36,254 nucleotides of DNA from a virus (taxonomy: Duplodnaviria > Heunggongvirae > Uroviricota > Caudoviricetes). The stretch lies in the IMG/VR virus record IMGVR_UViG_2531839432_000012; one strand, given 5' to 3'. The position numbers and the translations under genes are program-made. Every line of letters begins with the position of its first letter. Positions within the stretch are counted from its first letter, which is position 1. The notes beneath the pieces are model-generated. The model was not told the DNA's origin, ran no database searches, and saw nothing but the letters and a program-made list of their open reading frames with translations. Below, one piece after another: positions 1-36,254 of this stretch.

Positions 1-981
1 CTAACGTCTTGCTTTTAACAATAACCAGATAAACACCGGCGCACCCAACGTTGCGGTGACCACGCCAATAGGCAGCTCTGCGGCAGCTAATGCCAGGCGC
101 GCTACAATATCGGCCAGCAGCAATGCGCTCGCCCCTGCCAGCGCGCAGCCGGGAAGTAATACGCGATGATCGGTTAAACCACACAGCCGGAGAATATGTG
201 GGATCACCAGACCAATAAAGCCGATAGCACCCGCCAGCGCCACACTGACGCCAACCATCCAGCCGGTCGCTGCCACCAGCACATTGCGCCAGAACCACAG
301 GGGTAAACCCAGTTGCCGCGCCGAGATCTCGCCAAGTGCTAACATATTCATCGGCCTGGACTGACAACAGATCCACAACAACACGGGGATCAATGCCAGC
401 ATCAGCCAGCTTTGCCGCCAGTCTACGCCGCCAAAACCGCCCATCATCCAGTACATCAGCTGACGCAAATCAACTGAGGTGGAAAAGTAGATAGCCCACG
501 TCATTAGTGCGCTACAGATAATCCCTAATGCAACGCCAGCCAGCAATAACCGACTGGTCGAAAGATGACGACGGGCGAAACGTAAGAGTATTAAAGTGAT
601 GATAAGCGCGCCAGCAATCGCACACAGCCCTAGCGCCCAGTTGGGGAGTTGCCCTTGCCCAAGTAATACCGCGGCGATAAGCCCCACGCCTGCGCCGTTA
701 GAGACGCCAAGTAGTCCAGGTTCTGCCAGAGGATTTTCAAACAACGCCTGCATTACAGCGCCGGATATAGCCAGCGCCGCACCAACCAGCAATACAGCCA
801 GCGTACGTGGCAGGCGAATTTGCCAGACGAACAGTTCGCCACGAGGAGTAAACCAGTCACCTGGCGAGATCCATTGTTCACCGGCGCAAAGGCTTAAGAG
901 AAGCGCCAGCAGCATCAAAACTGACAGGCATAATAACCAGCGAATATTTTGTCGCTGTTGTTGGCGGGCAAGTGTCAGCAT
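1..981 (-). CDS. btuC: Vitamin B12 ABC transporter permease BtuC (complete, 326 aa; stop codon at 1..3)
   Basis: Full-length ORF; translation is a polytopic membrane permease matching remembered E. coli BtuC essentially end to end ([17 protein letters not shown]...LLKARR). Recognition from memory, not a search. Confidence 0.9.
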
Positions 982-1039
982 GGTATCCGTTCTGCTGAAG
1001 TGTCATGGCGTTGATTTTACGGTGACTCTTCGACAGTGA

Positions 1040-1064
1040 AAAGAAAAAAGGCCGCAGAGCGGCC
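1040..1064 (-). terminator. Rho-independent terminator for leftward transcripts (stem GGCCGC/GCGGCC, loop AGA, followed on the minus strand by a U-run)
   Basis: Seen in sequence: aaaagaaaaaaGGCCGCagaGCGGCC on the plus strand; lies between the end of the 1174..1728 gene and the btuC start. Confidence 0.5.
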
Positions 1065-1173
1065 ATAAACACAAGCAAAAATCAATAAGTTAGATAATTA
1101 TCAAAGACTTACAGACACACAAAAACACAGCCAACCACAACAAATAACAGGGATGTGGTCAATTTGTGGATCA

Positions 1174-1728
1174 TCAGCCAACAAATTTAGCAACAAATAC
1201 AGCAACCGCCGCCGTGAAAATGGTTGTGCATACTGGCACAATAATGCCACTCCAACGCCACTTCGTATTATCATCAACCTTGTCAACCCGCCGATTCATC
1301 TCATCCATAATCTTGTCAAAGCGTTTATCCATCGCTTCGGTAAGCTCACCCTTCAGGCTGTTAATGTCTGATTTGAGCTGCTCTTTCAGGTGAGCTGTAT
1401 CAGATTTAAGCTCACCTTTCAGATTCGCAATATCGCATTTAAGATCACCTTTCAGATGAGCAATGTCTGCTTTGAGCTCACCTTTCACCTCACCAACATC
1501 AGCTTTGGTTGAGAGGTTTGTAGTGCGTTCAGTAAGCGTCGCAAGGTCGTTTCTTGTTAGCGATAAATCACCTTCGAGTCGCTCAATTCGCCTTTCAAGT
1601 TTATCTGACATTCCGCCTCCACTACTGCCGCCATCGCCGCCATGATAAAGCACATCACGCTCAGAATGCGACATACTACCTGCTGAATTACCGAAAAGGT
1701 TTCTTGCTGCATTACCCATTTTCACCAT
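1174..1728 (-). CDS. Hypothetical tail-anchored coiled-coil protein: Gly-rich N-terminus, 11-residue tandem repeats, C-terminal transmembrane helix; start may be ATG at 1719 or 1611 rather than 1728
   Basis: ORF of 184 aa; repeats KGELKADIAHL/KGDLKCDIANL/KGELKSDTAHL/KEQLKSDINSL; hydrophobic C-terminus IIVPVCTTIFTAAVAVFVAKFVG; the ATG at 1719 overlaps the stop of the upstream gene (ATGGGTAA). Confidence 0.6.
   Translation of the reverse strand: MVKMGNAARNLFGNSAGSMSHSERDVLYHGGDGGSSGGGMSDKLERRIERLEGDLSLTRNDLATLTERTTNLSTKADVGEVKGELKADIAHLKGDLKCDIANLKGELKSDTAHLKEQLKSDINSLKGELTEAMDKRFDKIMDEMNRRVDKVDDNTKWRWSGIIVPVCTTIFTAAVAVFVAKFVG
1339..1503. repeat. About five tandem 33-bp in-frame repeats encoding the 11-residue coiled-coil repeats of the 1174..1728 protein
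   Basis: Seen in sequence: repeated units of the form atttaagctcacctttcagat...gcaat with minor substitutions. Confidence 0.6.
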
Positions 1729-2212
1729 CCTGCGCTTTGTCTTTCTCCAACCACTTCAGCACCGCAGACGTACGGTAAAGGCTCAGGTAACCACAATTCA
1801 GGCAATGCAGCGTGTAATAAGTTTTGCGCATATCAGGTATGCTCTTAACATCACCAAAAAAAGTATAAGATACATAATGCTTTATGTTCTCTTTAATTAA
1901 CTCACTCTGCTCCTCCAAGGGTAGATTGTTAAAATTTTCTGGTTTCTTATTTTTATCCCAACAAAGATCCATACTTTCAGGAATAGATAATCGCGACGAT
2001 CCACATGAAGGGCAGACACTGGAGACCCCCTTCTCAGACAAGAAACGGAAGAAGATTTCTGGCGTAATCTCCATCAGCCGCTCTTTATGTTTTTTGACAC
2101 GACTCATCGACTTCTTATTGATTTCATCAGCTTCTTCTTTGCATTTATCTTCTATATATTTCGATAGTAAATAGTCATATAACTCTTTTTTTGTAGGTTT
2201 TTTTATTTCCAT
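1712..2212 (-). CDS. Hypothetical low-GC protein with two CxxC pairs (CPSC ... CLNC), putative zinc ribbon; translationally coupled to int
   Basis: 166-aa ORF; visibly AT-rich compared with neighbours; start codon 2 nt downstream of the int stop with GGGAGG 9 nt upstream (inside the int 3' end); Lys/Glu-rich. Confidence 0.6.
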   Translation of the reverse strand: MEIKKPTKKELYDYLLSKYIEDKCKEEADEINKKSMSRVKKHKERLMEITPEIFFRFLSEKGVSSVCPSCGSSRLSIPESMDLCWDKNKKPENFNNLPLEEQSELIKENIKHYVSYTFFGDVKSIPDMRKTYYTLHCLNCGYLSLYRTSAVLKWLEKDKAQDGENG

Positions 2213-2214
2213 AG

Positions 2215-3192
2215 TTACATTCCTCCCAAGGGATTAAACCTCACCGCATCCTGCAAGTAATCCGGCGCAAGATGGGCATAAATCATCGTTGTCTGAATCT
2301 TTGCGTGCCCCAGAATTTTCTGGAGCGTCAGAATATTGCCGCCGTTCATCATGAAATGACTGGCGAATGTGTGGCGCAGCGCATGAACAGCCTGGCCGTC
2401 GGGAACATCAGGTGCGACCGTTTTGATGACATCGCGAACCAATGGATAATCCAGCGTCGGAAACACCAGTTTCCCGCCCCGTTTTTTGATCTTTTCAAAC
2501 AGGCTTTCAGAAATAGGAACGGTACGGTTTTTGCTGTTCTTCGTTTTTGAAAAAGTGATTCGACAATGAAGAACACGGCGCTGCTCCAGTGCCACTACCT
2601 CGCCCCATCGCGCCCCGGTCGACAGAAGGATTTCGACAGCCAGCCGTTCATCAGGATTTTCAGCCAGTGCATCCAGCAACTGAACACATTCAGACTTACT
2701 CAGATATCCCATTTCGCGCTCGTTAACCTTCATTCCTTTAAGGCCTTGAACGGGGTTATCGTTAAGAAAATGGCCGGATGAGATGAGTGCGGTAAACATC
2801 GCGCTTAACGCCCCAATCTCTCGATTAATAGTGCTGGGCTGTATCCCCTGCTCTATCCTGGACACACGTAGCTCGGTGAGCATCGTTGTATTAAGTTTAT
2901 GCACGCACGGGTCATCCATTGCCTCACTCAAGCGCAGCAATTTAAGGCGCGTGTTATGCCCTGACTTCATTAGCTGGCCGTGGTATTTCCACCACAAGTC
3001 AATAAGCACTGACAGCGGACGGCGATCAATGGAGTTTCCTTTCCACTCATTGTTATGCTGTTGCGCCAGCACCCACCGCTCATATAAAACTGCATCCGAT
3101 TTCGTTTTAAATTTTTTACGAATGCGTTTGCCTTTACGCCCCTCCGGGCGCATGTCAAGAAGATACCCTCCCGGAATTGATTTTATGCTCAT
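2215..3192 (-). CDS. int: P2-family tyrosine integrase (start taken at MSIKSIPGGY, not the longer ORF start at 3342)
   Basis: Translation has the phage-integrase C-terminal signature (HALRHTFASHFMMNGGNILTLQKILGHAKIQTTMIYAHL) and N-terminal arm-binding region; position next to the repressor as in P2. Confidence 0.85.
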   Translation of the reverse strand: MSIKSIPGGYLLDMRPEGRKGKRIRKKFKTKSDAVLYERWVLAQQHNNEWKGNSIDRRPLSVLIDLWWKYHGQLMKSGHNTRLKLLRLSEAMDDPCVHKLNTTMLTELRVSRIEQGIQPSTINREIGALSAMFTALISSGHFLNDNPVQGLKGMKVNEREMGYLSKSECVQLLDALAENPDERLAVEILLSTGARWGEVVALEQRRVLHCRITFSKTKNSKNRTVPISESLFEKIKKRGGKLVFPTLDYPLVRDVIKTVAPDVPDGQAVHALRHTFASHFMMNGGNILTLQKILGHAKIQTTMIYAHLAPDYLQDAVRFNPLGGM

Positions 3193-3241
3193 TCGTGAAA
3201 CCCCAGCGTTACAAGACCACCATGCCCCCAGCGCTCCATGA

Positions 3242-3553
3242 TTAGCCGGGCTGTGTGCCAGTCTTGCGGGGTTTTTGAGAAGGCGATGTGCTTTTTGGCC
3301 CATCAGGGGAGAGAGACGGACTGATCTGCCCAGCAGCCTCATTTGTTTCGTTACTCATCAACCACGTGGTGTATTTTTTAAAGTTCGGATGCATTGTGAT
3401 TTTCAGTAAAACCTCCGTCCCCACACCTCTAATACCAGTCTCATATTGCTTAACTGTACCAACCGCAATACCTATTGAATCCGCGAACTTTGCCTGGCTA
3501 AGTCCCTCAGATTCTCGAATTGCTTTTAGCTTCTTTGATATCTCTATTGACAT
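3242..3553 (-). CDS. Immunity repressor (P2 C-like), small HTH protein (start taken at MSIEISKKLKAIRESEGLSQ)
   Basis: HTH-like segment LSQAKFADSIGIAVGTVKQYETG; divergent from the early operon as in P2 int-C / cox. Confidence 0.7.
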   Translation of the reverse strand: MSIEISKKLKAIRESEGLSQAKFADSIGIAVGTVKQYETGIRGVGTEVLLKITMHPNFKKYTTWLMSNETNEAAGQISPSLSPDGPKSTSPSQKPRKTGTQPG

Positions 3554-3648
3554 GGTGTGCACCTGAATACTATATTGGTTATCAGTTGAGTACCACTTGA
3601 CGCCACAAAAAGCCACAAATAGCACCAGATTGAATAGGTTATCACATC
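3554..3648. promoter_or_regulatory. Divergent early control region (Pc/Pe-equivalent) with candidate operator direct repeats
   Basis: Seen in sequence: GCCACAAA at 3602..3609 and 3612..3619 (10-bp periodicity); GGTTATCA at 3577..3584 and 3637..3644; TTGACG -35-like hexamer at 3596..3601. Confidence 0.4.
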
Positions 3649-3927
3649 ATGGCAAAAGTCCTGAACACATACGAACAAGCGGATTTTGAGCGTTTGGCGG
3701 CGTTCTACCCATACCGTGATGAGCATGGGTTACCTGTGCTTGAAGAAAGCCTGGAAGATTACGCGAAACGCACGAATCAAAGCATTCTTGCGGTAAGAAG
3801 GCAGGCCGACAGATCAGTAATCCCCGTCACCCAAGAAGGAAGAAACACAAAACGCAAAGTAAACCTTTTCGCAATATTCCTGAAAACCATCAGGAGCGAA
3901 GAGAAATACGTGCAGATGACAAAATAA
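3649..3927 (+). CDS. First early-operon gene, Cox/Apl-like position (putative excisionase / early regulator)
   Basis: 92-aa ORF at the position of P2 cox; assignment by synteny only. Confidence 0.4.
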   Translation: MAKVLNTYEQADFERLAAFYPYRDEHGLPVLEESLEDYAKRTNQSILAVRRQADRSVIPVTQEGRNTKRKVNLFAIFLKTIRSEEKYVQMTK

Positions 3928-3941
3928 CGAGGTGTCATTTT

Positions 3942-4280
3942 ATGCTGAAGCAACGCCGTAATTTTCGTACCGGAACAGAACGCCACGCTAACCGTTTCAC
4001 TACCAGTGCATCACGCAGCAACATCCGCTACAGCCTGAGTGATACACACGCAACGCCGGATGGCTACCCAGTAAAACAAATCGGCGAGCACGCCTGGCTG
4101 ATTGAGAAAGCTGGAATCGTGATCCACAAATGCCCACGCAATCCGTTTACCGGAAACCGCATTTTTGCATTGAGCTGTGGCGACAATCAGTTCGGGCAGG
4201 ATTTCACATTATACGAAGCACTTCGCACGGTTGATCGTCTGCTTCGCGGGCAAAGTTTTATTAAACAGGCTGATTTATAA
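3942..4280 (+). CDS. Hypothetical early protein (112 aa)
   Basis: ORF in the early operon; no recognisable motif. Confidence 0.5.
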   Translation: MLKQRRNFRTGTERHANRFTTSASRSNIRYSLSDTHATPDGYPVKQIGEHAWLIEKAGIVIHKCPRNPFTGNRIFALSCGDNQFGQDFTLYEALRTVDRLLRGQSFIKQADL

Positions 4281-6861: not shown

Positions 6862-7251
6862 ATGATTGACGCTCATGACTTCACAAGATGGGTGCGCACA
6901 CAGGACACCCGTCTGGCTCCCGTTCTTCAGGGATTATTTGATCTCTACATCCGTGGTCGTGACAACAGAGCACGCACCACAAAACCGGAGAATGCAGACC
7001 CCCTTTATTTCACAGTAGACGACTGCTACCGCGTGGACTTCACACCACACGGGCTGGCGTTGCACTGCCTGACACCACACGGAGAATCACTGCTGGCGTA
7101 TTACGACTCCCCGGCCTCCGTATTTGCGGCAATGCTGGCGCATCGCACTGCTGGCGGGTGTGCCTCGCTGAGTGAATACACCGCTGAATTTAACCGCCTT
7201 TCTGCCCTCTTCTCGCAGGAGTGGCAGCGCGTGACGGGATACCAGCCATGA
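6862..7251 (+). CDS. Hypothetical early protein (129 aa) immediately upstream of the replication gene
   Basis: ORF; its stop overlaps the A start (ATGA). Confidence 0.5.
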   Translation: MIDAHDFTRWVRTQDTRLAPVLQGLFDLYIRGRDNRARTTKPENADPLYFTVDDCYRVDFTPHGLALHCLTPHGESLLAYYDSPASVFAAMLAHRTAGGCASLSEYTAEFNRLSALFSQEWQRVTGYQP

Positions 7252-10088
7252 GTGAGTTTGCATGGAGCTGGAATGAACCACGGCCAGCCATTGATCCGGC
7301 CAGATTTACGGAGCACAGGCAGGAAACTGAAACCGACCTGCAACGCGCCATCCGTTACTACCTTGAGGCAGACAAAAAGGCTCTGGAAGAACAGGAAGCG
7401 AAGGAGGAAGCCTTTTTCGCACAATCCACCGTGGGTAAAAAACTCATGGCATCCCTTGAGGAAGCCGGACAGCGTGAAAAGCTGGCACAAAGCATCATCA
7501 GCAAGCGTCAGGCAACAGAACAAGACCCGGTGGCCCGTGCTTTTGCCACACTGAAGGTGCTTCCCGTTTATCTGCGTGAACCTCTGAGCCGCCACCTCTC
7601 TTTCCTGCGCAAAAAACAGGAAGCCGATCGCCAGAAAGGCAAAAAGAGCTGGCAGGCTGAACGCTACGCGCGCGGAACCCTGCGCAAAATATTCCAACGT
7701 CTGGACCGCACCGATCACCGCTGGCTGACACCGGGTTATCGCTCCCTTGCCGGACGCGAACGCCTGGACGATTTGCTTTACCTACCGCAGCTCAACAAAC
7801 ACCAGATACAGACGCTGGCCACCATGACGGCGGCGATGTTCAGCAGCACCTTCGAAAAACTCTGCGATGGCTTTGGCGCGACTGATGGCGAACTGACCAT
7901 GGATGTAACGCTGAAGGCGTATCAGATGCTGGCCCGCATGGCGTTACACCTGCACGCCATGCCTCCACATTATGACGCACTGACAACAGACAAAAACCGG
8001 AGGAACGAACCGGACACGGAGCTGCTGCCGGGCGCAATCCTTCGCCTGACCTGTGCGGAATGGTGGAAACGCAAACTGTGGCTGTTACGTTGCGAGTGGA
8101 GAGAAGAACAACTCCGCGCCGCCTGTCTGGTTTCCAGAAAAACATCACCCTATCTGAGCCAGGACGCGTTAAGCGAGTTTCGCGCACAGCGCGACAAAAC
8201 ACGCGATTTCCTGAAAAGTTTCATGCTGGAAAATGAAGACGGGTTTACGATTGATCTCGAGACGGTGTATTACGCGGGAGTAAGTAACCCGGTTCACCGT
8301 AAGGCAGAAATGATGGCCACAATGAAGGGGCTGGAACTTCTGGCCGAAGCCCGTGGCGACAAAGCGGTGTTTCTGACTGTCACCTGCCCGTCAAAATACC
8401 ACGCCACAACAGAGAACGGTCATCCGAATCCCAAATGGAACGGGGCCACCATGCGCGACTCCAGCGATTACCTGGTTAACACGTTTTTTGCAGCGGTCCG
8501 CAAGAAACTGAACCGCGATGGCCTGCGCTGGTATGGCATCCGCACGGTGGAGCCTCACCATGACGGCACCGTGCACTGGCATATGATGGTCTTTGCTCAT
8601 CCGGAAGAAATCGACAGCATTGTGGCCATCACCCGCGATATTGCCATTCAGGAAGACCGCCACGAGCTGGGCGATGACATAACTCCGCGTTTTAAGGCGG
8701 AGTACGTAGACGGCTCAAAAGGCACACCAACCAGCTATATCGCGACCTACATCGGAAAAAACCTGGACAGCCGCGCCGTGGATGGCATCGACCCGAAAAC
8801 GGGCAAGCCACGCGTTGAGCACGAAACCGGAAAATCAATGGCAGAGAGCGTGGAACGCGCCATCGGCTGGGGGCGCCTTCACCGGGTCCGCCAGTTCCAG
8901 TTCTTTGGTATCCCCTCCCGTCAGGTGTGGCGTGAACTGCGTCGCCTTGCCAGCCAGATGGCACGCAACCCGGAAGGCCCGCAACGGCTGAAGGATGACG
9001 CAATGGACTCGGTTCTTGCTGCCGCTGATGCCGGATGTTTTGCCACCTACATAGAGAAACAGGGCGGCGTACTTGTTCCACGCAAAGACTACCTGATTCG
9101 CACCGCCTACGACCTCGCAGATGAGCTGAACGATTACGGCGAACAGAGCGTACAGATTTACGGGATCTGGTCACCACTCATCGGGGAATCCTCCCGTGTG
9201 TGCACGCACCCGGATAACTGGAAGCTGGTAAGACGTAAACCTGAAGCAGAAGACATCGCCCGCGAAAATGGTTTTGACCTTCAGGGCGGCCCTGCCGCCC
9301 CTTGGACTCGTGGCAATAACTGTCCCCGTGTACAGGAAACGGACAACAACGGGACAGAACAGCCGGAAGAACGGCCAGCACCGTGGCCGCAGCTCCCTGA
9401 CGGCGTTGAAGTGAACGTATGGATGCGCTCACTGAAACGGCACGAACGCCGGGCGCTGATGCGTTCGCTTCGTGACAAACAGGCAAAAAACAGCAGTGAT
9501 GAAATGCAGAGCTGGACACAGAGCCGCAAACAGCAGCGGCCTTTGCCTGATAACCACGAATTACTCGCTAAAGAATGGCGGGAATCTGCCGAATCTCTCG
9601 GCCTGCATATCGGTGAACAGCAGATGCAGCACCTGTTACGGGGCGGCAGCCTGTACGTTGACGGCAGCATCATTGCACCGCAGGGATTTGAAATTGTACG
9701 CAAACCGGATACCCGCCCGGACAGCCGAATCACGCAGTTCTGGCAGCGCCTGAGCCGTAATCACGGCGTAAGCAGCACGGAGATCCGCCATAACCCGGTC
9801 GCCAGCTATCTGGAACAGCTGGGGGCATCAGCCCCCGAAGCCGCCGCACGCCTGGCATCCACACTTCAGCAGGACCAGAACACCATGAAAACCCCCGTTA
9901 CCGTGCTTTCTGACATGCTGCGCGCCATCCGTGACGCAGAGCACGCACAGAGAATCAGTGAAACCACTGAACGCGCCCACCGCAAAGCAGACCTGCTGCG
10001 GGGTGGCTTGACCCGTGGGAACAAAAAACAGACAGAAACGGGATCCACGAATCCCGTAAATGACCAAAAAACGCGCAGCGATATATGA
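7248..10088 (+). CDS. A: Replication initiation protein (P2 gpA-like rolling-circle replication endonuclease), 946 aa; start taken at MSEFAWSW
   Basis: Very large early ORF at the position of P2 A after the early small genes; conserved-looking core (HxH-type segment VHWHMMVF, YIATYIGKN); identification by size, position and motifs, not a search. Confidence 0.75.
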   Translation: MSEFAWSWNEPRPAIDPARFTEHRQETETDLQRAIRYYLEADKKALEEQEAKEEAFFAQSTVGKKLMASLEEAGQREKLAQSIISKRQATEQDPVARAFATLKVLPVYLREPLSRHLSFLRKKQEADRQKGKKSWQAERYARGTLRKIFQRLDRTDHRWLTPGYRSLAGRERLDDLLYLPQLNKHQIQTLATMTAAMFSSTFEKLCDGFGATDGELTMDVTLKAYQMLARMALHLHAMPPHYDALTTDKNRRNEPDTELLPGAILRLTCAEWWKRKLWLLRCEWREEQLRAACLVSRKTSPYLSQDALSEFRAQRDKTRDFLKSFMLENEDGFTIDLETVYYAGVSNPVHRKAEMMATMKGLELLAEARGDKAVFLTVTCPSKYHATTENGHPNPKWNGATMRDSSDYLVNTFFAAVRKKLNRDGLRWYGIRTVEPHHDGTVHWHMMVFAHPEEIDSIVAITRDIAIQEDRHELGDDITPRFKAEYVDGSKGTPTSYIATYIGKNLDSRAVDGIDPKTGKPRVEHETGKSMAESVERAIGWGRLHRVRQFQFFGIPSRQVWRELRRLASQMARNPEGPQRLKDDAMDSVLAAADAGCFATYIEKQGGVLVPRKDYLIRTAYDLADELNDYGEQSVQIYGIWSPLIGESSRVCTHPDNWKLVRRKPEAEDIARENGFDLQGGPAAPWTRGNNCPRVQETDNNGTEQPEERPAPWPQLPDGVEVNVWMRSLKRHERRALMRSLRDKQAKNSSDEMQSWTQSRKQQRPLPDNHELLAKEWRESAESLGLHIGEQQMQHLLRGGSLYVDGSIIAPQGFEIVRKPDTRPDSRITQFWQRLSRNHGVSSTEIRHNPVASYLEQLGASAPEAAARLASTLQQDQNTMKTPVTVLSDMLRAIRDAEHAQRISETTERAHRKADLLRGGLTRGNKKQTETGSTNPVNDQKTRSDI

Positions 10089-10137
10089 AGCGCGCACAAA
10101 ACAGGCAAAAACGGGATTTCAGAATCCCGTAAACGAT
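10022..10137. repeat. Two ~40-bp direct repeats, each containing a hairpin ACGGGAT-N6-ATCCCGT, flanking a possible promoter; candidate parC-like centromere/operator
   Basis: Seen in sequence: caaaaaacagacagaaACGGGATccacgaATCCCGTaaatga (10022..10063) and cacaaaacaggcaaaaACGGGATttcagaATCCCGTaaacga (10096..10137); TATAT-containing spacer between them; the first repeat overlaps the A 3' end. Confidence 0.4.
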
Positions 10138-10164
10138 TAATTAATCAACATAAGGAAAAGCGAC

Positions 10165-11124
10165 ATGAAAATTTGTATCGACGACGGCTCCACCAACATC
10201 AAGCTGGCATGGACTGAGAACGGCGAACGCCGCAACGCCATCAGCCCGAACAGCTTCAAGTCGGAATGGTCTGCGCCGTTCGGTGGCACGCAGCCCGCGA
10301 ACTATATGCTTGATGGCGTGCGCTATGGTTTTGATCCGGTCAGCGATCGCTTTGTCCAGACGACCGACACGCAATACCAATACAGAGATGTGAATGTCAT
10401 TGCCATTCATCACGCGCTGGTCAAATCAGGCATCACGCCACAGGAGGTGGATGTGGTTGTCACCCTGCCACTGAGCGAGTATTTCGACACAAACGCACAG
10501 CCGGACATGGCCAACATCAACCGCAAAAAAGCGAACGTTATGCGCCCGGTGGAGTACCAGAACGGCGAAGCATTCACTATCCGTAACGTGCGGGTTATGC
10601 CTGAATCCATTCCGGCTGGCTTTAAGGCACTGGCTGACATGAGTCCGTTTGAATCCCTGCTGATTGTGGATTTGGGCGGAACCACGCTGGATGTGGCAAA
10701 GGTTCAGGGGCAACTGGCAGGTATCAGCCAGGTGTTTTGCGATCCACACGTAGGCGTTTCTCTGATGGCCGATGCCGTACTGTCGGTGATGGCCACTAAC
10801 GGTATGCGCACCAGTCACCACATCGCCAATACCATTATCGAACATCGCCATGATGAAGCCTGGCTGCGCCAGCACATCCACAATGACGCGCATTACGCCA
10901 GCCTGATGGCGGTTATTCGTGAAAAGGAAGAAACACTGAAACAACGCGTGATCCGCGCGCTGGCGGGTTTTTCGGGTTACGGTCGGGTGATGGTTGTCGG
11001 TGGCGGGGCGGAGATTGTGGCACCCGCTATCCGCGAAGCCTGCGGAGTTAATGCGACTTTCATCGCGGACGGGGTGCCACAGTTTGCTCTGGTTAATGGG
11101 CTGTACGCAATGGACAAGGAGTAA
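10165..11124 (+). CDS. parM: Actin-like segregation ATPase, ParM/StbA family
   Basis: Translation matches remembered plasmid R1 ParM over its length, including IDDGSTNIKL, VMPESIPAG, DLGGTTLD, GGGAE; good RBS. Confidence 0.85.
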   Translation: MKICIDDGSTNIKLAWTENGERRNAISPNSFKSEWSAPFGGTQPANYMLDGVRYGFDPVSDRFVQTTDTQYQYRDVNVIAIHHALVKSGITPQEVDVVVTLPLSEYFDTNAQPDMANINRKKANVMRPVEYQNGEAFTIRNVRVMPESIPAGFKALADMSPFESLLIVDLGGTTLDVAKVQGQLAGISQVFCDPHVGVSLMADAVLSVMATNGMRTSHHIANTIIEHRHDEAWLRQHIHNDAHYASLMAVIREKEETLKQRVIRALAGFSGYGRVMVVGGGAEIVAPAIREACGVNATFIADGVPQFALVNGLYAMDKE

Positions 11125-11128
11125 ACCA

Positions 11129-11440
11129 ATGACGACACCAACCAGACGGATAAGTTTCTATCTGAAGCCCGCCGCCGTCAAGAACGAAGGCGAAGCATGC
11201 GCCTGGCTGGACAGCCTTACACCAGAAGCCCGCAAAAGCGGCCAACGCGTGGCTTTTCTGGCCGGGCTGGCACTTCTGAAAATGAATCCGGCAGAGGCTT
11301 ACCGACTGGCTGCATGGGCTGATGATGAGGCGTTATCAGTGACACAAACCAGGACAGAACGCCCCGCGTCACAGCCAGTATCAACCGCACAGATAACCAG
11401 TCAGATGGCCGGAAATATCCGGGCGTTATTTCCCGAATAA
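11129..11440 (+). CDS. parR: ParR/StbB-like centromere-binding adaptor (start at ATG 11129, not 10994)
   Basis: N-terminal ISFYLKPAAV...LDSLTPEARKSGQRVAFLAGLAL resembles the remembered ParR ribbon-helix-helix N-terminus; RBS AAGGAG 7 nt upstream; immediately downstream of parM. Confidence 0.65.
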   Translation: MTTPTRRISFYLKPAAVKNEGEACAWLDSLTPEARKSGQRVAFLAGLALLKMNPAEAYRLAAWADDEALSVTQTRTERPASQPVSTAQITSQMAGNIRALFPE

Positions 11441-11445
11441 CACAA

Positions 11446-11469
11446 CATCAGGGCGCATCCGCCCTGATG
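11446..11469 (+). terminator. Strong hairpin (10-bp stem CATCAGGGCG / CGCCCTGATG, loop CATC) after parR; weak U-tract
   Basis: Seen in sequence. Confidence 0.35.
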
Positions 11470-11503
11470 ACTTTAACCCGGGAACATAAACAAGGGGGAC
11501 ACA

Positions 11504-11836
11504 ATGCAACACATTGACAGAGAAAAAGCGCAGCGACTGATTGAGCGGATGGAAGCGCTGGCGAAAGAAGAAAATGTCAACATCCAAAAAATAGCTGAAT
11601 GTGGCCAGATAGTTCTTCGTCGTGAAAAAGACCTCAAACAACTGATGTCTGGCGAAACCAGCAAAACATGGACTTCAGGCGAGGAGACGGTTTATTGCAG
11701 TTTCTGCAATAAATCCCAGCACGAAGTCACAAAGGTGATTGCCGGACCGTCTGTTTACATCTGCAATGAGTGCGTGGATTTGTGCAATGAAATTATCAGG
11801 AAAGAAGTGACAGACAAAAAGGAAAAAAACGCATGA
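11504..11836 (+). CDS. ClpX-type C4 zinc-finger domain protein (110 aa), first gene of a five-gene coupled operon
   Basis: C-terminal half [37 protein letters not shown] closely resembles the N-terminal zinc-binding domain of ClpX; RBS GGGGGA upstream. Confidence 0.7.
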
Positions 11837-12168
11837 ACAGAAAACAAAAACAAGAGTTGAAATACTTTTTATGTAAAGAAATTGCCAGGCTTGAAGATGC
11901 AGAATCACAATCATCAGAAATTCCGTTCGGAATGGATATCAACGACGCCCGTATACTCCAGGCATACCGCATAGCTCAGGCTGCACTACAGGCAAAACCG
12001 TCAGATGGACTGGTTAGAGCAGTACGTTTCTATGAACTGGTAAAGCGTGAGAATCCGCCAGCCGAAACCGGAGCATGGAAAGACGCTGTTGACTGGGTGC
12101 TCAAAGAGGCTTGCCATGCTGTAAACATTGGTATCAAGGGAGGGGGATATGGCAACCAACAACCGTAA
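11833..12168 (+). CDS. Hypothetical protein (111 aa)
   Basis: Start overlaps the upstream stop (ATGA). Confidence 0.5.
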
Positions 12169-12343
12169 AGCAAAGATTCTGTTAGTTCGTAGAAACGCTC
12201 CTGGCGTCTGGCAGTGGGTGAGACTCAGCAACCGACGGATGGGGTTGATGAAATATTACGGGATGATGGATTGTGGTTTTTGCAAAAAGCCCAGCGCGGC
12301 GCAAAACCGCTGGAAAAACCACTTGCGCACTAAAGGAGAGTGA
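12149..12343 (+). CDS. Hypothetical basic protein (64 aa; start at ATG 12149 with RBS AGGGAGGGGG)
   Basis: In-frame ATG preceded by a strong RBS; overlaps the end of the previous gene. Confidence 0.45.
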   Translation: MATNNRKAKILLVRRNAPGVWQWVRLSNRRMGLMKYYGMMDCGFCKKPSAAQNRWKNHLRTKGE

Positions 12344-12344
12344 T

Positions 12345-12554
12345 ATGGCTATCGCTGCAAGTTACACCATGCATCTCTATTGTGATTGCCTCCAGTGTAC
12401 AGATGGCAAATATAAGTCGCCAGACTTCGGTGAGTATATAGGTACGTCATGGGCTGGCTGTGCAAAAGAGGCGCGCAAGGATGGCTGGCGAATAAGCAAA
12501 GACAAAACGCGTGCTTTTGCGCCCGGGCATAAAGTTTTGAGGATTAACAAATGA
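12345..12554 (+). CDS. Hypothetical Cys-rich protein (69 aa; CDCLQC motif)
   Basis: ATG with RBS AAGGAGAG; start overlaps the previous stop. Confidence 0.5.
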   Translation: MAIAASYTMHLYCDCLQCTDGKYKSPDFGEYIGTSWAGCAKEARKDGWRISKDKTRAFAPGHKVLRINK

Positions 12555-12811
12555 CCACTTTAACCGACAAAGAACTGATTAAAGAAATCAAAGAGCGCAT
12601 AGGTAGCCTGGACGTTCGAGACAATATTGAACGCCGTGCTTATGAAATTGCACTGGCATCGCTGGAAGCAGAGCCAGTAGCATGGATGCATGTAAATAAC
12701 GGCATCGGAATACCAGCAATAACAAGGAGTAAAGATGTTGCAGAGAGTTGGTTATCAAAAGGCTGGTATGTCCAACCCTTACATCTAGCCCAGCCTGCAT
12801 CAAAGCTATAG
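12551..12811 (+). CDS. Hypothetical protein (86 aa), last gene of the operon
   Basis: Start overlaps the previous stop (ATGA); followed by a terminator. Confidence 0.5.
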   Translation: MTTLTDKELIKEIKERIGSLDVRDNIERRAYEIALASLEAEPVAWMHVNNGIGIPAITRSKDVAESWLSKGWYVQPLHLAQPASKL

Positions 12812-13932: not shown

Positions 13933-14962
13933 CATCAAGAAGAGCATAAGAATTAAAACGGATCACCTCTTCACCAAGCCAGTCATTGATGTGCTTCATG
14001 GCCTCCATGACAGGCATCAGCTCGTTAATTGCGTAAACCCGCGCTGCCTTCTCCACATCACCAAACGCACTTTTTTCGCCCGGCATCGCCCCCATCAGTT
14101 GCGGCGGAACGCGGTGCGAAGCCAGCACATCATCACGGGATGCCGCCTTAACATTCATGAACTCATCCTTTGCGGTGATCTGCTGGAACGGCAAAATTTG
14201 CACCCCCTCTTTGCCCCCGTTGGGCGCATGAATGAGCACGTTTTTAAACGCACCACCACCACGTGCCCCCTGTAGCGTTTCCTTCAGGGAGTCCATGCTT
14301 TCGCGGTTTACCTGCGCTGCACCGATGTAGATGATGCACCCGGCGTGGGATCCGTTGTCGTAGTACAGCTTTCTGAACATGTCCGCCGAATGAGACAGGC
14401 TGGCCGAGAGTAATGCGCCAAGATATTCCGGCATGCCGTAGATTTCCTGGTTAATATCCGGATTCATCAGGTGGCACACTTTGCCAGGGCGAAACTGAAA
14501 CGCGTCCTTGCCATCCTGTACATACCACCATGATTCAAGATCGCTTCCGCGTCGCATGTATTTCGCCAGGGCGTGCCGTAATTTAAGCGGTTCGCCGAGC
14601 ATATTGCTTCGAAGCTCAAGGAATGCGTTACCGAATACAAACCAGTCCAGCGCCAGCGCCGAGAAATCCTGCCGGGAAAGCAGCGGGGGCGGAATATAGC
14701 AACCGAGCAATACATTGCGCTTAAAGTAAAGCGCAGACTGATGCCAGGACGTTTGCCGGGCGGCTCTTGCCAGACCGTACCAGTCCACCGGGGTTTCATA
14801 CCACCGCCCGTTATCAGCACAGTACATATTGTCCAGCAAATCATGCCCGGTCAGGCGATAAGGACCATCAAATGTGAATGCACTGAGCGATGATTCTTTC
14901 CTGAGCGCATCAGCGAGATCAATGCGTGAACTCATGCGCACTTTTTTATTTTTTCTGCTCAT
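13916..14962 (-). CDS. Q: Portal protein (P2 gpQ-like)
   Basis: 348-aa ORF directly downstream of and overlapping the large terminase gene, divergent from the O-N-M-L operon as in P2; size matches gpQ. Confidence 0.8.
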   Translation of the reverse strand: MSRKNKKVRMSSRIDLADALRKESSLSAFTFDGPYRLTGHDLLDNMYCADNGRWYETPVDWYGLARAARQTSWHQSALYFKRNVLLGCYIPPPLLSRQDFSALALDWFVFGNAFLELRSNMLGEPLKLRHALAKYMRRGSDLESWWYVQDGKDAFQFRPGKVCHLMNPDINQEIYGMPEYLGALLSASLSHSADMFRKLYYDNGSHAGCIIYIGAAQVNRESMDSLKETLQGARGGGAFKNVLIHAPNGGKEGVQILPFQQITAKDEFMNVKAASRDDVLASHRVPPQLMGAMPGEKSAFGDVEKAARVYAINELMPVMEAMKHINDWLGEEVIRFNSYALLDEKTAP

Positions 14963-35983: not shown

Positions 35984-36196
35984 ATGGTCGGAGGGAATAC
36001 CCGAAGGCCAGATGTGGAAAGGCCCCGGAAAACATCTCTGTTTAACCGAGGCCCTAACCGCATTACCTTGACAAGTGAAAGGTTAGCGCCTCTCCGGAAA
36101 AGGAGCAAGTGCTATGTCGCAAAAATCGCTTACGGCCATCACGTTCTGCGTGACGGCAATCCTCATCATCTGGATGTTGCACGGTTCGCTGTGTGA
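35984..36196 (+). CDS. Possible mok-like overlapping reading frame of the hok locus
   Basis: 70-aa ORF overlapping most of the hok ORF in another frame, as in hok/mok/sok loci; inference only. Confidence 0.3.
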   Translation: MVGGNTRRPDVERPRKTSLFNRGPNRITLTSERLAPLRKRSKCYVAKIAYGHHVLRDGNPHHLDVARFAV

Positions 36197-36254
36197 AATA
36201 CGGATGAGCTTCTGGGGAGCGGAGTTTGCGGCGTTCTTACAGTGTAAGCAGTAA
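36114..36254 (+). CDS. hok: Hok/Gef-family type I toxin (46 aa, MSQKSLTAITFCVTAILIIWMLHGSLCEIRMSFWGAEFAAFLQCKQ), complete with stop at the window end
   Basis: Hand-translated small ORF with RBS AAAGGAG; single TM helix followed by the conserved SLCEIR and AAF motifs of Hok-family toxins (closest to HokA from memory). Confidence 0.7.
   Translation: MSQKSLTAITFCVTAILIIWMLHGSLCEIRMSFWGAEFAAFLQCKQ

Follow-up and report, generated by a model that had tools for sequence, protein, structure and literature searches.

Why should a phage that integrates into its host's chromosome carry a plasmid-type segregation cassette directly behind its replication gene? The question is raised by a 36,254-nucleotide (nt) stretch of DNA (IMG/VR record IMGVR_UViG_2531839432_000012; "the window" below means this whole stretch), in which genes for a ParM-like actin ATPase and a ParR-like adaptor, preceded by two repeats, occupy positions 10022-11440. 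On nucleotide comparison the window, most of which is 96-98% identical to Escherichia phage P88, is a P88-like prophage (Xuanwuvirus, Peduoviridae) of E. coli. Profile matches, comparison with solved structures, synteny and selection together indicate that the cassette is probably a functional type II (ParMRC-type) DNA-segregation module, and its most likely role appears to be the segregation or positioning of transient circular phage DNA.

A ParM-ParR gene pair downstream of gpA

The elements of the cassette and the gene that precedes it are as follows (ORF, open reading frame; aa, amino acids; bp, base pairs).

7221-10088, plus strand: gpA, replication endonuclease gene A, a HUH rolling-circle initiator (Pfam Phage_GPA, E 4.8e-131)
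10022-10063: repeat 1, "parC-like" candidate centromere/operator and reference copy, inside the last 67 nt of the gpA ORF
10038-10057: dyad 1, ACGGGATCCACGAATCCCGT, candidate ParR-binding palindrome with 7-bp arms and a 6-nt centre
10064-10094: spacer between the repeats, holding the gpA stop codon (10086-10088) and lacking a consensus promoter
10095-10136: repeat 2, candidate centromere/operator, intergenic, ending 28 nt before the parM start
10111-10130: dyad 2, ACGGGATTTCAGAATCCCGT, candidate ParR-binding palindrome
10152-10156, plus strand: AAGGA, Shine-Dalgarno-like, 8 nt before the parM ATG
10165-11124, plus strand: parM, actin-like segregation ATPase, 319 aa (Pfam PF06406 and PF21523; alignment with R1 ParM)
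11129-11440, plus strand: parR, predicted centromere-binding adaptor, 103 aa (104 codons with the stop; PF10784)
11446-11469: GC-rich hairpin with a 10-bp stem just after parR (terminator-like scan; T-run on the minus strand only)

The original prediction that the 319-aa protein is an actin-like ATPase of the ParM/StbA type is borne out by a profile (hidden Markov model) search. Both domains match well above their cut-offs (StbA_N, PF06406, E 9.6e-82 and 273 bits against 24.6; ParM C-terminal domain, PF21523, E 1.3e-68 and 230 bits against 27.4), and residues 2-316 align with the structure of R1 ParM (1mwk) at about 50% identity (E 4e-92). The phosphate-binding and adenosine motifs of the nucleotide-binding site (DDGSTN, MPESIPAG, DLGGTTLD and GGGAE) are conserved in this alignment.

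After a gap of 4 nt, parM is followed by parR. The description of its product as a ParR-like protein of 104 residues holds for the family, with a match to PF10784 (Plasmid_stab_B, "Plasmid stability protein") over residues 6-76 (E 1.6e-24, 85.9 bits, cut-off 25), but not for the length, in which the stop codon had been counted. PHROGs gives both proteins the name "partition protein" (ParM, PHROG 691; ParR, PHROG 2515, E 1e-58). ParR is laid out as a predicted N-terminal DNA-binding domain, a variable linker and a conserved C-terminal NIRALFPE tail. In an alignment of 19 diverse ParR sequences (down to 43% identity) the N-terminus is invariant (R6-R-I-S-F-Y-L-K-P14), compatible with a DNA-reading strand, and the tail takes the form N96-I97-x-x-L/F-F101-P102 with N96-I97 and F101-P102 invariant. 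The C-terminal motif, (K/R)xN(A/I)xxLFP, aligns with the end of R1 ParR (...KKNAMKLIN), the tail peptide that docks on ParM (structure 4A62); the R1 ParR sequence used here has matches of 100% identity adjoining parM in more than 1000 plasmids. A sequence search of the PDB with the window ParR gives no match.

The leader of parM, TTAATCAA...AAGGA, is common to the window and to related Hafnia and Plesiomonas phage loci. At the other end of the pair, the hairpin at 11446-11469 is a possible operon-end terminator or RNA stabiliser.

Two dyad repeats as a candidate centromere

A repeat search finds two direct 42-nt copies upstream of parM, 81% identical and 73 nt apart from start to start. The original prediction of two 40-bp repeats with internal hairpins thus stands as to their number and their dyads, but the first copy lies in the coding end of gpA and not in an intergenic region. 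Both dyads read ACGGGAT-N6-ATCCCGT with perfect arms. Allowing two mismatches, this pattern has exactly two sites in the 36-kb window against a shuffle expectation of 0.07, and none of 100 shuffles contains at least two.

The promoter-like spacer that had been proposed between the repeats is not supported, as a scan for sigma-70 consensus sites over 9800-11600 yields no promoter site and the best manual candidate (ATGACC-N16-TATATG) agrees at no more than 8 of 12 positions, the final T, a conserved position, being absent. A terminator scan likewise finds no plus-strand terminator between gpA and parM, and the combination is consistent with read-through from the early operon. As to the origin of replication, the P2 ori nick-site motif TCGGAGTCCTGTCAA has no match in the window at up to three mismatches, so that nothing links the repeats to ori.

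Several further features of this segment are recorded here as observations. The RNA of 10015-10170 folds more stably than shuffled sequence (z = -4.39). Among 55 distinct upstream sequences in an alignment, the commonest variants of dyad 2 are A10111G and C10128T, both transitions, which retain G-U pairing in a plus-strand RNA hairpin while breaking the symmetry of the DNA dyad. Six AAAC motifs (starts at 10026, 10036, 10069, 10099, 10109 and 10131) are spaced at near-integer helical turns, a periodicity equalled in none of 500 shuffles, although the motif was picked post hoc and its phasing is partly due to the 73-nt repeat; as a note made after the fact, they resemble the phased, A/C-rich iterons in parC of R1.

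Conservation and location in P2-like phages

The cassette is not peculiar to P88-like phages. The nearest ParM relatives outside this clade all lie in P2-like prophages (Hafnia, 62% identity; Plesiomonas, 62%; Serratia, 58%; Enterobacter, 54%), where the order is gpA, none to two ORFs, parM, parR and, further on, the portal gene, with parM and parR on the gpA strand. A scan of genome contigs with ParM returns only three near-identical loci, and these more distant relatives come from a protein search with contig look-ups. The sampled relatives at 52% identity or below sit beside Rep3, ParA or Tra genes and thus belong to plasmids or integrative and conjugative elements (ICEs). In a neighbour-joining tree the 16 ParM tips with a P2 context form one group with the plasmid-context proteins outside it, at moderate support (105 of 200 bootstrap replicates). 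Of the four other phage lineages examined, three have paired repeats of their own upstream of parM. In the Plesiomonas phage these are direct repeats of 26 nt with a CGGG...CCCG core, set 72 bp apart, and the first copy falls within the end of gpA; the Serratia and Enterobacter phages have two inverted arms of 14-20 nt, 26-28 nt apart. At the Hafnia locus no convincing repeat pair is found upstream of parM, and the preceding ORF is separated from parM by a gap of only 44 nt. By its synteny the parMR pair appears to behave less as shuffled hotspot cargo and more as an optional extension of the replication module.

Within the P88-like clade we compared 87 loci (the window, phage records, IMG/VR contigs and three genomes). 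ParM is 319 aa long in all of them, and its ratio of nonsynonymous to synonymous substitution rates (dN/dS) is 0.052 (pooled pairwise, 69 nucleotide alleles). ParR varies far more: about 85 loci yield 50 different proteins, which include at least two families of mosaic alleles. Its dN/dS follows its domains, at 0.11 over residues 1-66, 0.58 in the linker (67-88) and 0.06 over the last 15 residues, and a working adaptor would be expected to show just this combination of constraint on the DNA-binding head and the motor-binding tail with freedom in the linker between them. The mosaic structure includes an apparent recombination breakpoint at about codon 18, and megablast identity stops at window position 11183 in several phages; in E. 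coli prophages the linker is hypervariable while the neighbouring ParM stays 98-100% identical. Damaged copies are seen as well: one ParR in the sample is shortened to 79 aa, and one phage record carries a fragmented parM.

The cassette is overwhelmingly chromosomal. A 1.6-kb segment spanning it is present in 1361 of 5426 complete E. coli genomes (about a quarter), and its places in these genomes number 1525 on chromosomes against 2 on plasmids (1525/1527). A single free phage-sized circle was found among 72,556 plasmid records: pZ1323PEC0009-2 (NZ_CP148288.1), a circular molecule of 34,461 bp from an E. coli cat isolate, carries a complete P88-like genome, in which integrase, C, cox, gpA, parM and parR are all present. 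It may be a genuine episome, or else a circle that was assembled from DNA of an induced culture. A 26.8-kb Shigella boydii "plasmid" was considered as a further episome and rejected, being a linear, IS1-disrupted fragment of a degraded prophage. In a set of 50,697 phage records, the P88-like phages and the P1-like phage D6 are the only ones with a ParM of this family. A cassette of E. coli type (98% protein identity) is also found on a 226-kb contig assigned to the Gram-positive "Vagococcus sp. WN89Y" (NZ_JBQPOM010000071.1), where assembly contamination with enterobacterial DNA is most likely.

The copy in the window is an integrated prophage adjoining a host FecCD-family gene, as is evident from that gene, the integrase and the C-type repressor at its left end:

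1-981: host FecCD-family permease gene, at the start of the window
2215-3342: tyrosine integrase, intact
3242-3625: C-type helix-turn-helix repressor

Within the prophage gpA is the sole replication gene annotated. Its ORF is listed from the first GTG and its true start is probably further downstream; window 7569-10088 aligns with positions 304-2823 of P88 gpA at 95.8%. The minus strand at 13941-14962 aligns with the portal gene of P88, which places the cassette between gpA and that gene, in the gpA-gpQ interval. This interval is a hotspot of P2 that holds old and tin in the reference phage (Rousset et al., 2022; PMC9122126). The identity with P88 and this position agree with the original prediction of a P2-family prophage with the cassette where P2 has tin and old. 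At 96-99% nucleotide identity to P88, PhiR44_2, phiSM and others, cassette and phage are another copy of an arrangement found at the same gpA-gpQ position, without substantive difference, in other Xuanwuvirus and E. coli P2-like prophages.

The remaining genes around the cassette are noted for completeness. Window 1-3960, with the integrase and the left end, has no match to P88 and represents a different integration module; between the host FecCD-family gene and the integrase it carries two minus-strand ORFs of 184 and 166 aa (1174-2212), the first with weak coiled-coil-type Pfam matches only. Just after parR, a 110-aa protein (11504-11836, plus strand; 98% conserved in P88) combines an N-terminal region of no known function with a stand-alone ClpX-type C4 zinc finger at residues 64-99 (Pfam zf-C4_ClpX, E 2.9e-18) and has no AAA+ domain. 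It could act as a decoy or modulator of substrate or adaptor recognition by host ClpX; its P88 counterpart is oddly annotated as "carboxylate--amine ligase". Three small hotspot ORFs (111, 93 and 86 aa; 11833-12811, plus strand) match only PHROGs of unknown function (phrog_26213/660, 926 and 5117). PADLOC defence models give no match for ParM, ParR or the four ORFs downstream. At the end of the window (36114-36254, plus strand) lies a hok/gef-family toxin gene, 98% identical to the "MokW-like host killing" gene of P88, so that each of the R1 stability loci, the hok/sok type as well as the parMRC type, has a homologue in the phage.

The cassette as such has been named before. PGAP/RefSeq annotates its proteins as "plasmid segregation protein ParM" and "plasmid partitioning/stability family protein", P88 is listed among putative phage-plasmids (Pfeifer et al., 2021; PMC7969092), and the genes are mentioned, with speculation on plasmid maintenance, both there and by Rousset et al. 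(2022; PMC9122126). Neither paper describes the repeats, the pattern of selection or the cross-genus synteny, and papers on the P88 genome, the enteroaggregative E. coli 042 genome, the ST131 pangenome and the O157 proteome contain nothing on the cassette. As a sequence finding it is routine, and the two-site dyads at the gpA end, the domain-wise selection on ParR, the synteny across genera and the 1525:2 ratio are modest refinements.

Proposed handling of transient phage circles and its alternatives

The role that we favor can be set out as a sequence of steps. ParR dimers would bind the two dyads (10038-10057 and 10111-10130), which the 73-bp spacing of the repeats, about seven helical turns, would place on the same face of the DNA. 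The C-terminal tail of ParR (...NIRALFPE) would capture the ends of ATP-ParM filaments, and the growing filaments would push apart or position copies of the circular phage genome. P2 gpA belongs to a repressor-controlled early operon that is silent in lysogens, which we carry over to the P88-like phages by analogy. Because the element is almost always integrated and gpA lies in such an operon, the system would most likely act on the short-lived circles that follow infection, excision or induction, at the time of their replication by gpA, and not on a permanent plasmid prophage. Transcription of parMR together with gpA in the early replication operon is suggested by the missing plus-strand terminator after gpA, the missing consensus promoter and the 44-nt gap in Hafnia. 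We infer the binding of ParR to the repeats, the co-transcription and the stage of action from these features. Of the three roles raised in the original prediction, organization of extrachromosomal or replicating phage DNA is the best option.

Comparison with characterized systems shows which parts of this scheme have precedents. With the ParMRC system of R1/R100 (parA/stb, type II) the cassette shares the ParM and ParR (PF10784) families, the ParM motifs, an alignable ParR tail and the order of repeats, parM and parR with nearly abutting genes. Its candidate centromere is built differently. R1-type parC consists of ten A/C-rich iterons of 11 bp, five on either side of a recognizable promoter, and two other plasmid relatives also have 11-bp-phased arrays, whereas here there are two 42-bp dyad repeats, one of them in the preceding gene, with no consensus promoter and no R1-style iteron array. 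The likeness to plasmid R1 that had been predicted is thus one of gene order and not of centromere structure. The replicons also differ, R1 being a theta-replicating low-copy plasmid and the element studied here an integrating rolling-circle phage.

The srpMRC system of the SXT/R391 ICEs comes closer in circumstance. It stabilizes the excised, relaxase-replicated form of R391, and its centromere srpC comprises four 13-bp repeats in two pairs of about 40 bp, SrpR binding each pair and not the half-sites; SrpM and SrpR are no more than distant relatives of R1 ParMR, and SrpR is without homology to ParR (Carraro et al., 2015; PMC4489591). Common to both are a type II-like actin ATPase, an adaptor and a centromere, in the phage a candidate one, on a normally integrated element. 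Just as srpMRC acts on a transient circle arising from a rolling-circle (relaxase) initiator, the cassette stands beside the rolling-circle initiator gpA, and the two units of paired half-sites in srpC are the closest published architecture to its repeats. They differ in that srpMRC belongs to an ICE and has been tested experimentally, whereas the phage ParM and ParR are close members of the R1 family, known here from sequence.

AlpAC/alpS of the Corynebacterium glutamicum prophage CGP3 provides a phage precedent. Its co-transcribed adaptor binds upstream of its own operon, the system is induced early after excision, and AlpAC is required for efficient replication of circular CGP3 DNA after induction (Donovan et al., 2015; PMC4446434). 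Here too an integrated prophage encodes an actin-like filament former and an adaptor, although the CGP3 filament former belongs to another actin-like subfamily, the host is Gram-positive and the order of adaptor and motor genes is reversed, alpA then alpC. Both srpMRC and AlpAC, as precedents, argue for action on transient circles. The StbA-type locus of D6, whose ParM is 47.5% identical to that of the window, belongs to a 91-kb P1-like phage, whereas the P88-like phages are integrating P2-family phages of about 35 kb. D6 lives as a genuine plasmid prophage.

That last case bears on the alternative put forward by Pfeifer et al. (2021) and Rousset et al. (2022), a phage-plasmid lifestyle in which a stable low-copy plasmid prophage alternates with integration. 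Besides the suggestion in both papers, the complete P88-like genome on pZ1323PEC0009-2, the hok/gef-family toxin gene as another stability function of R1 type, and D6 as the sole other phage with such a ParM, there as a plasmid stability gene, speak for it. We nevertheless regard this lifestyle as unlikely: the chromosomal and plasmid counts and the lone free circle disfavor the stable episomal form that had been suggested, that circle may reflect spontaneous induction in the sequenced culture, and the window copy is integrated with an intact integrase and a C-type repressor. With gpA as the only replication gene, and repressed by analogy with P2, a quiescent plasmid state would have no replicon at all. 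At the far end of the range, the suggestion that the cassette is an inactive remnant of plasmid origin could draw on the truncated or frameshifted parM alleles of some E. coli lineages, the fragmented parM and the 79-aa ParR. It is effectively refuted by the purifying selection on ParM, the intact parM of all P88-like loci in the sample, the domain-wise constraint on ParR and the retention of the pair in an unchanged position by P2-like phages from five genera, with identity as low as 54%.

Two further alternatives, which we hold to be about equally improbable and less so than a remnant, concern the hotspot and the repeats. The cassette could be cargo with a role in exclusion or defence, through partition incompatibility with incoming plasmids or phages that have related centromeres or by other means, since it shares its hotspot with old, tin and numerous defence systems that have been validated (PMC9122126) and the mosaic polymorphism of ParR is a frequent pattern of conflict-related genes. 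Yet ParR varies mainly in its linker while its DNA-reading N-terminus is invariant, both proteins keep all features expected of a working segregation pair, ParM is under strong purifying selection, PADLOC is silent, and linkage to gpA in the same orientation in five genera is unlike shuffled cargo. The repeats, for their part, might not be a centromere but hairpins for processing or stability of the mRNA, or sites for gpA or ori, with ParR binding elsewhere or only regulating. The stable RNA fold, the G-U-preserving variants of dyad 2, the location of repeat 1 inside gpA and the small number of units compared with plasmid iteron arrays would fit such a function. Against it stand the duplication of a 20-bp perfect-arm dyad at seven turns directly upstream of parM, the place of type II centromere/operators, the like arrangement of different sequence in the Plesiomonas phage, the comparable architecture of SrpR-bound srpC (PMC4489591) and the absence of the P2 ori nick-site motif from the window.

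Several points weigh against a segregation role on transient circles. Two repeat units compare with 4 to 36 in characterized parC sites and may be too few to build a filament-capping complex. Sequence conservation in the P88 clade is only marginally higher in the dyad arms than in loops and flanks, a difference too small to argue for or against binding-site constraint. An AlphaFold2 model of the ParR monomer (19-sequence alignment), of low confidence (predicted local distance difference test score of 58), contains helices at 20-29, 32-52 and 54-61, leaves residues 1-17 unmodelled and lends no independent support to a ribbon-helix-helix fold of the ParR N-terminus. A need for segregation is puzzling in a phage with a fast lytic cycle and no intervening cell divisions, and the searchable literature contains no experiment on the cassette in any P2-like phage. 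Two shortened parM alleles, one with a frameshift after residue 224 (P0010, 649 member sequences) and one with a stop at residue 188 (P0017, 555 member sequences), suggest that parM has been inactivated in certain clonal lineages of E. coli; the contigs that carry them measure 507 kb and 5.1 Mb. As such alleles are common in some lineages, a resident prophage can lose the gene, which is to be expected if its function benefits the phage and not the host.

With these points included, we tentatively propose, as a possibility that falls somewhat short of even, that ParMRC of the P2 family is a replication-coupled genome-handling machine and not a device for plasmid lysogeny, in which a reduced, two-site centromere at the end of gene A would tether new monomeric circles to ParM filaments and, in the transient extrachromosomal phase that follows infection or induction, separate or position them, to the benefit of replication, packaging or inheritance before integration. 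If true, this would be a small-phage E. coli counterpart of AlpAC and srpMRC, and two dyad sites would be enough for a type II segrosome. A role on transient circles would extend to the classic P2 system the idea, derived from srpMRC and AlpAC, that integrated elements need segregation machinery in their brief extrachromosomal phases, and would offer a tractable E. coli model with a close relative of R1 ParM and a minimal two-site centromere. Should the facultative plasmid state be real instead, P2-like phages would count as phage-plasmids, with consequences for the prediction of prophages and for estimates of how much DNA moves by horizontal transfer. Roughly one complete E. coli genome in four carries this ParMRC-type cassette, with its actin-like ATPase, within an integrating P2-like prophage.

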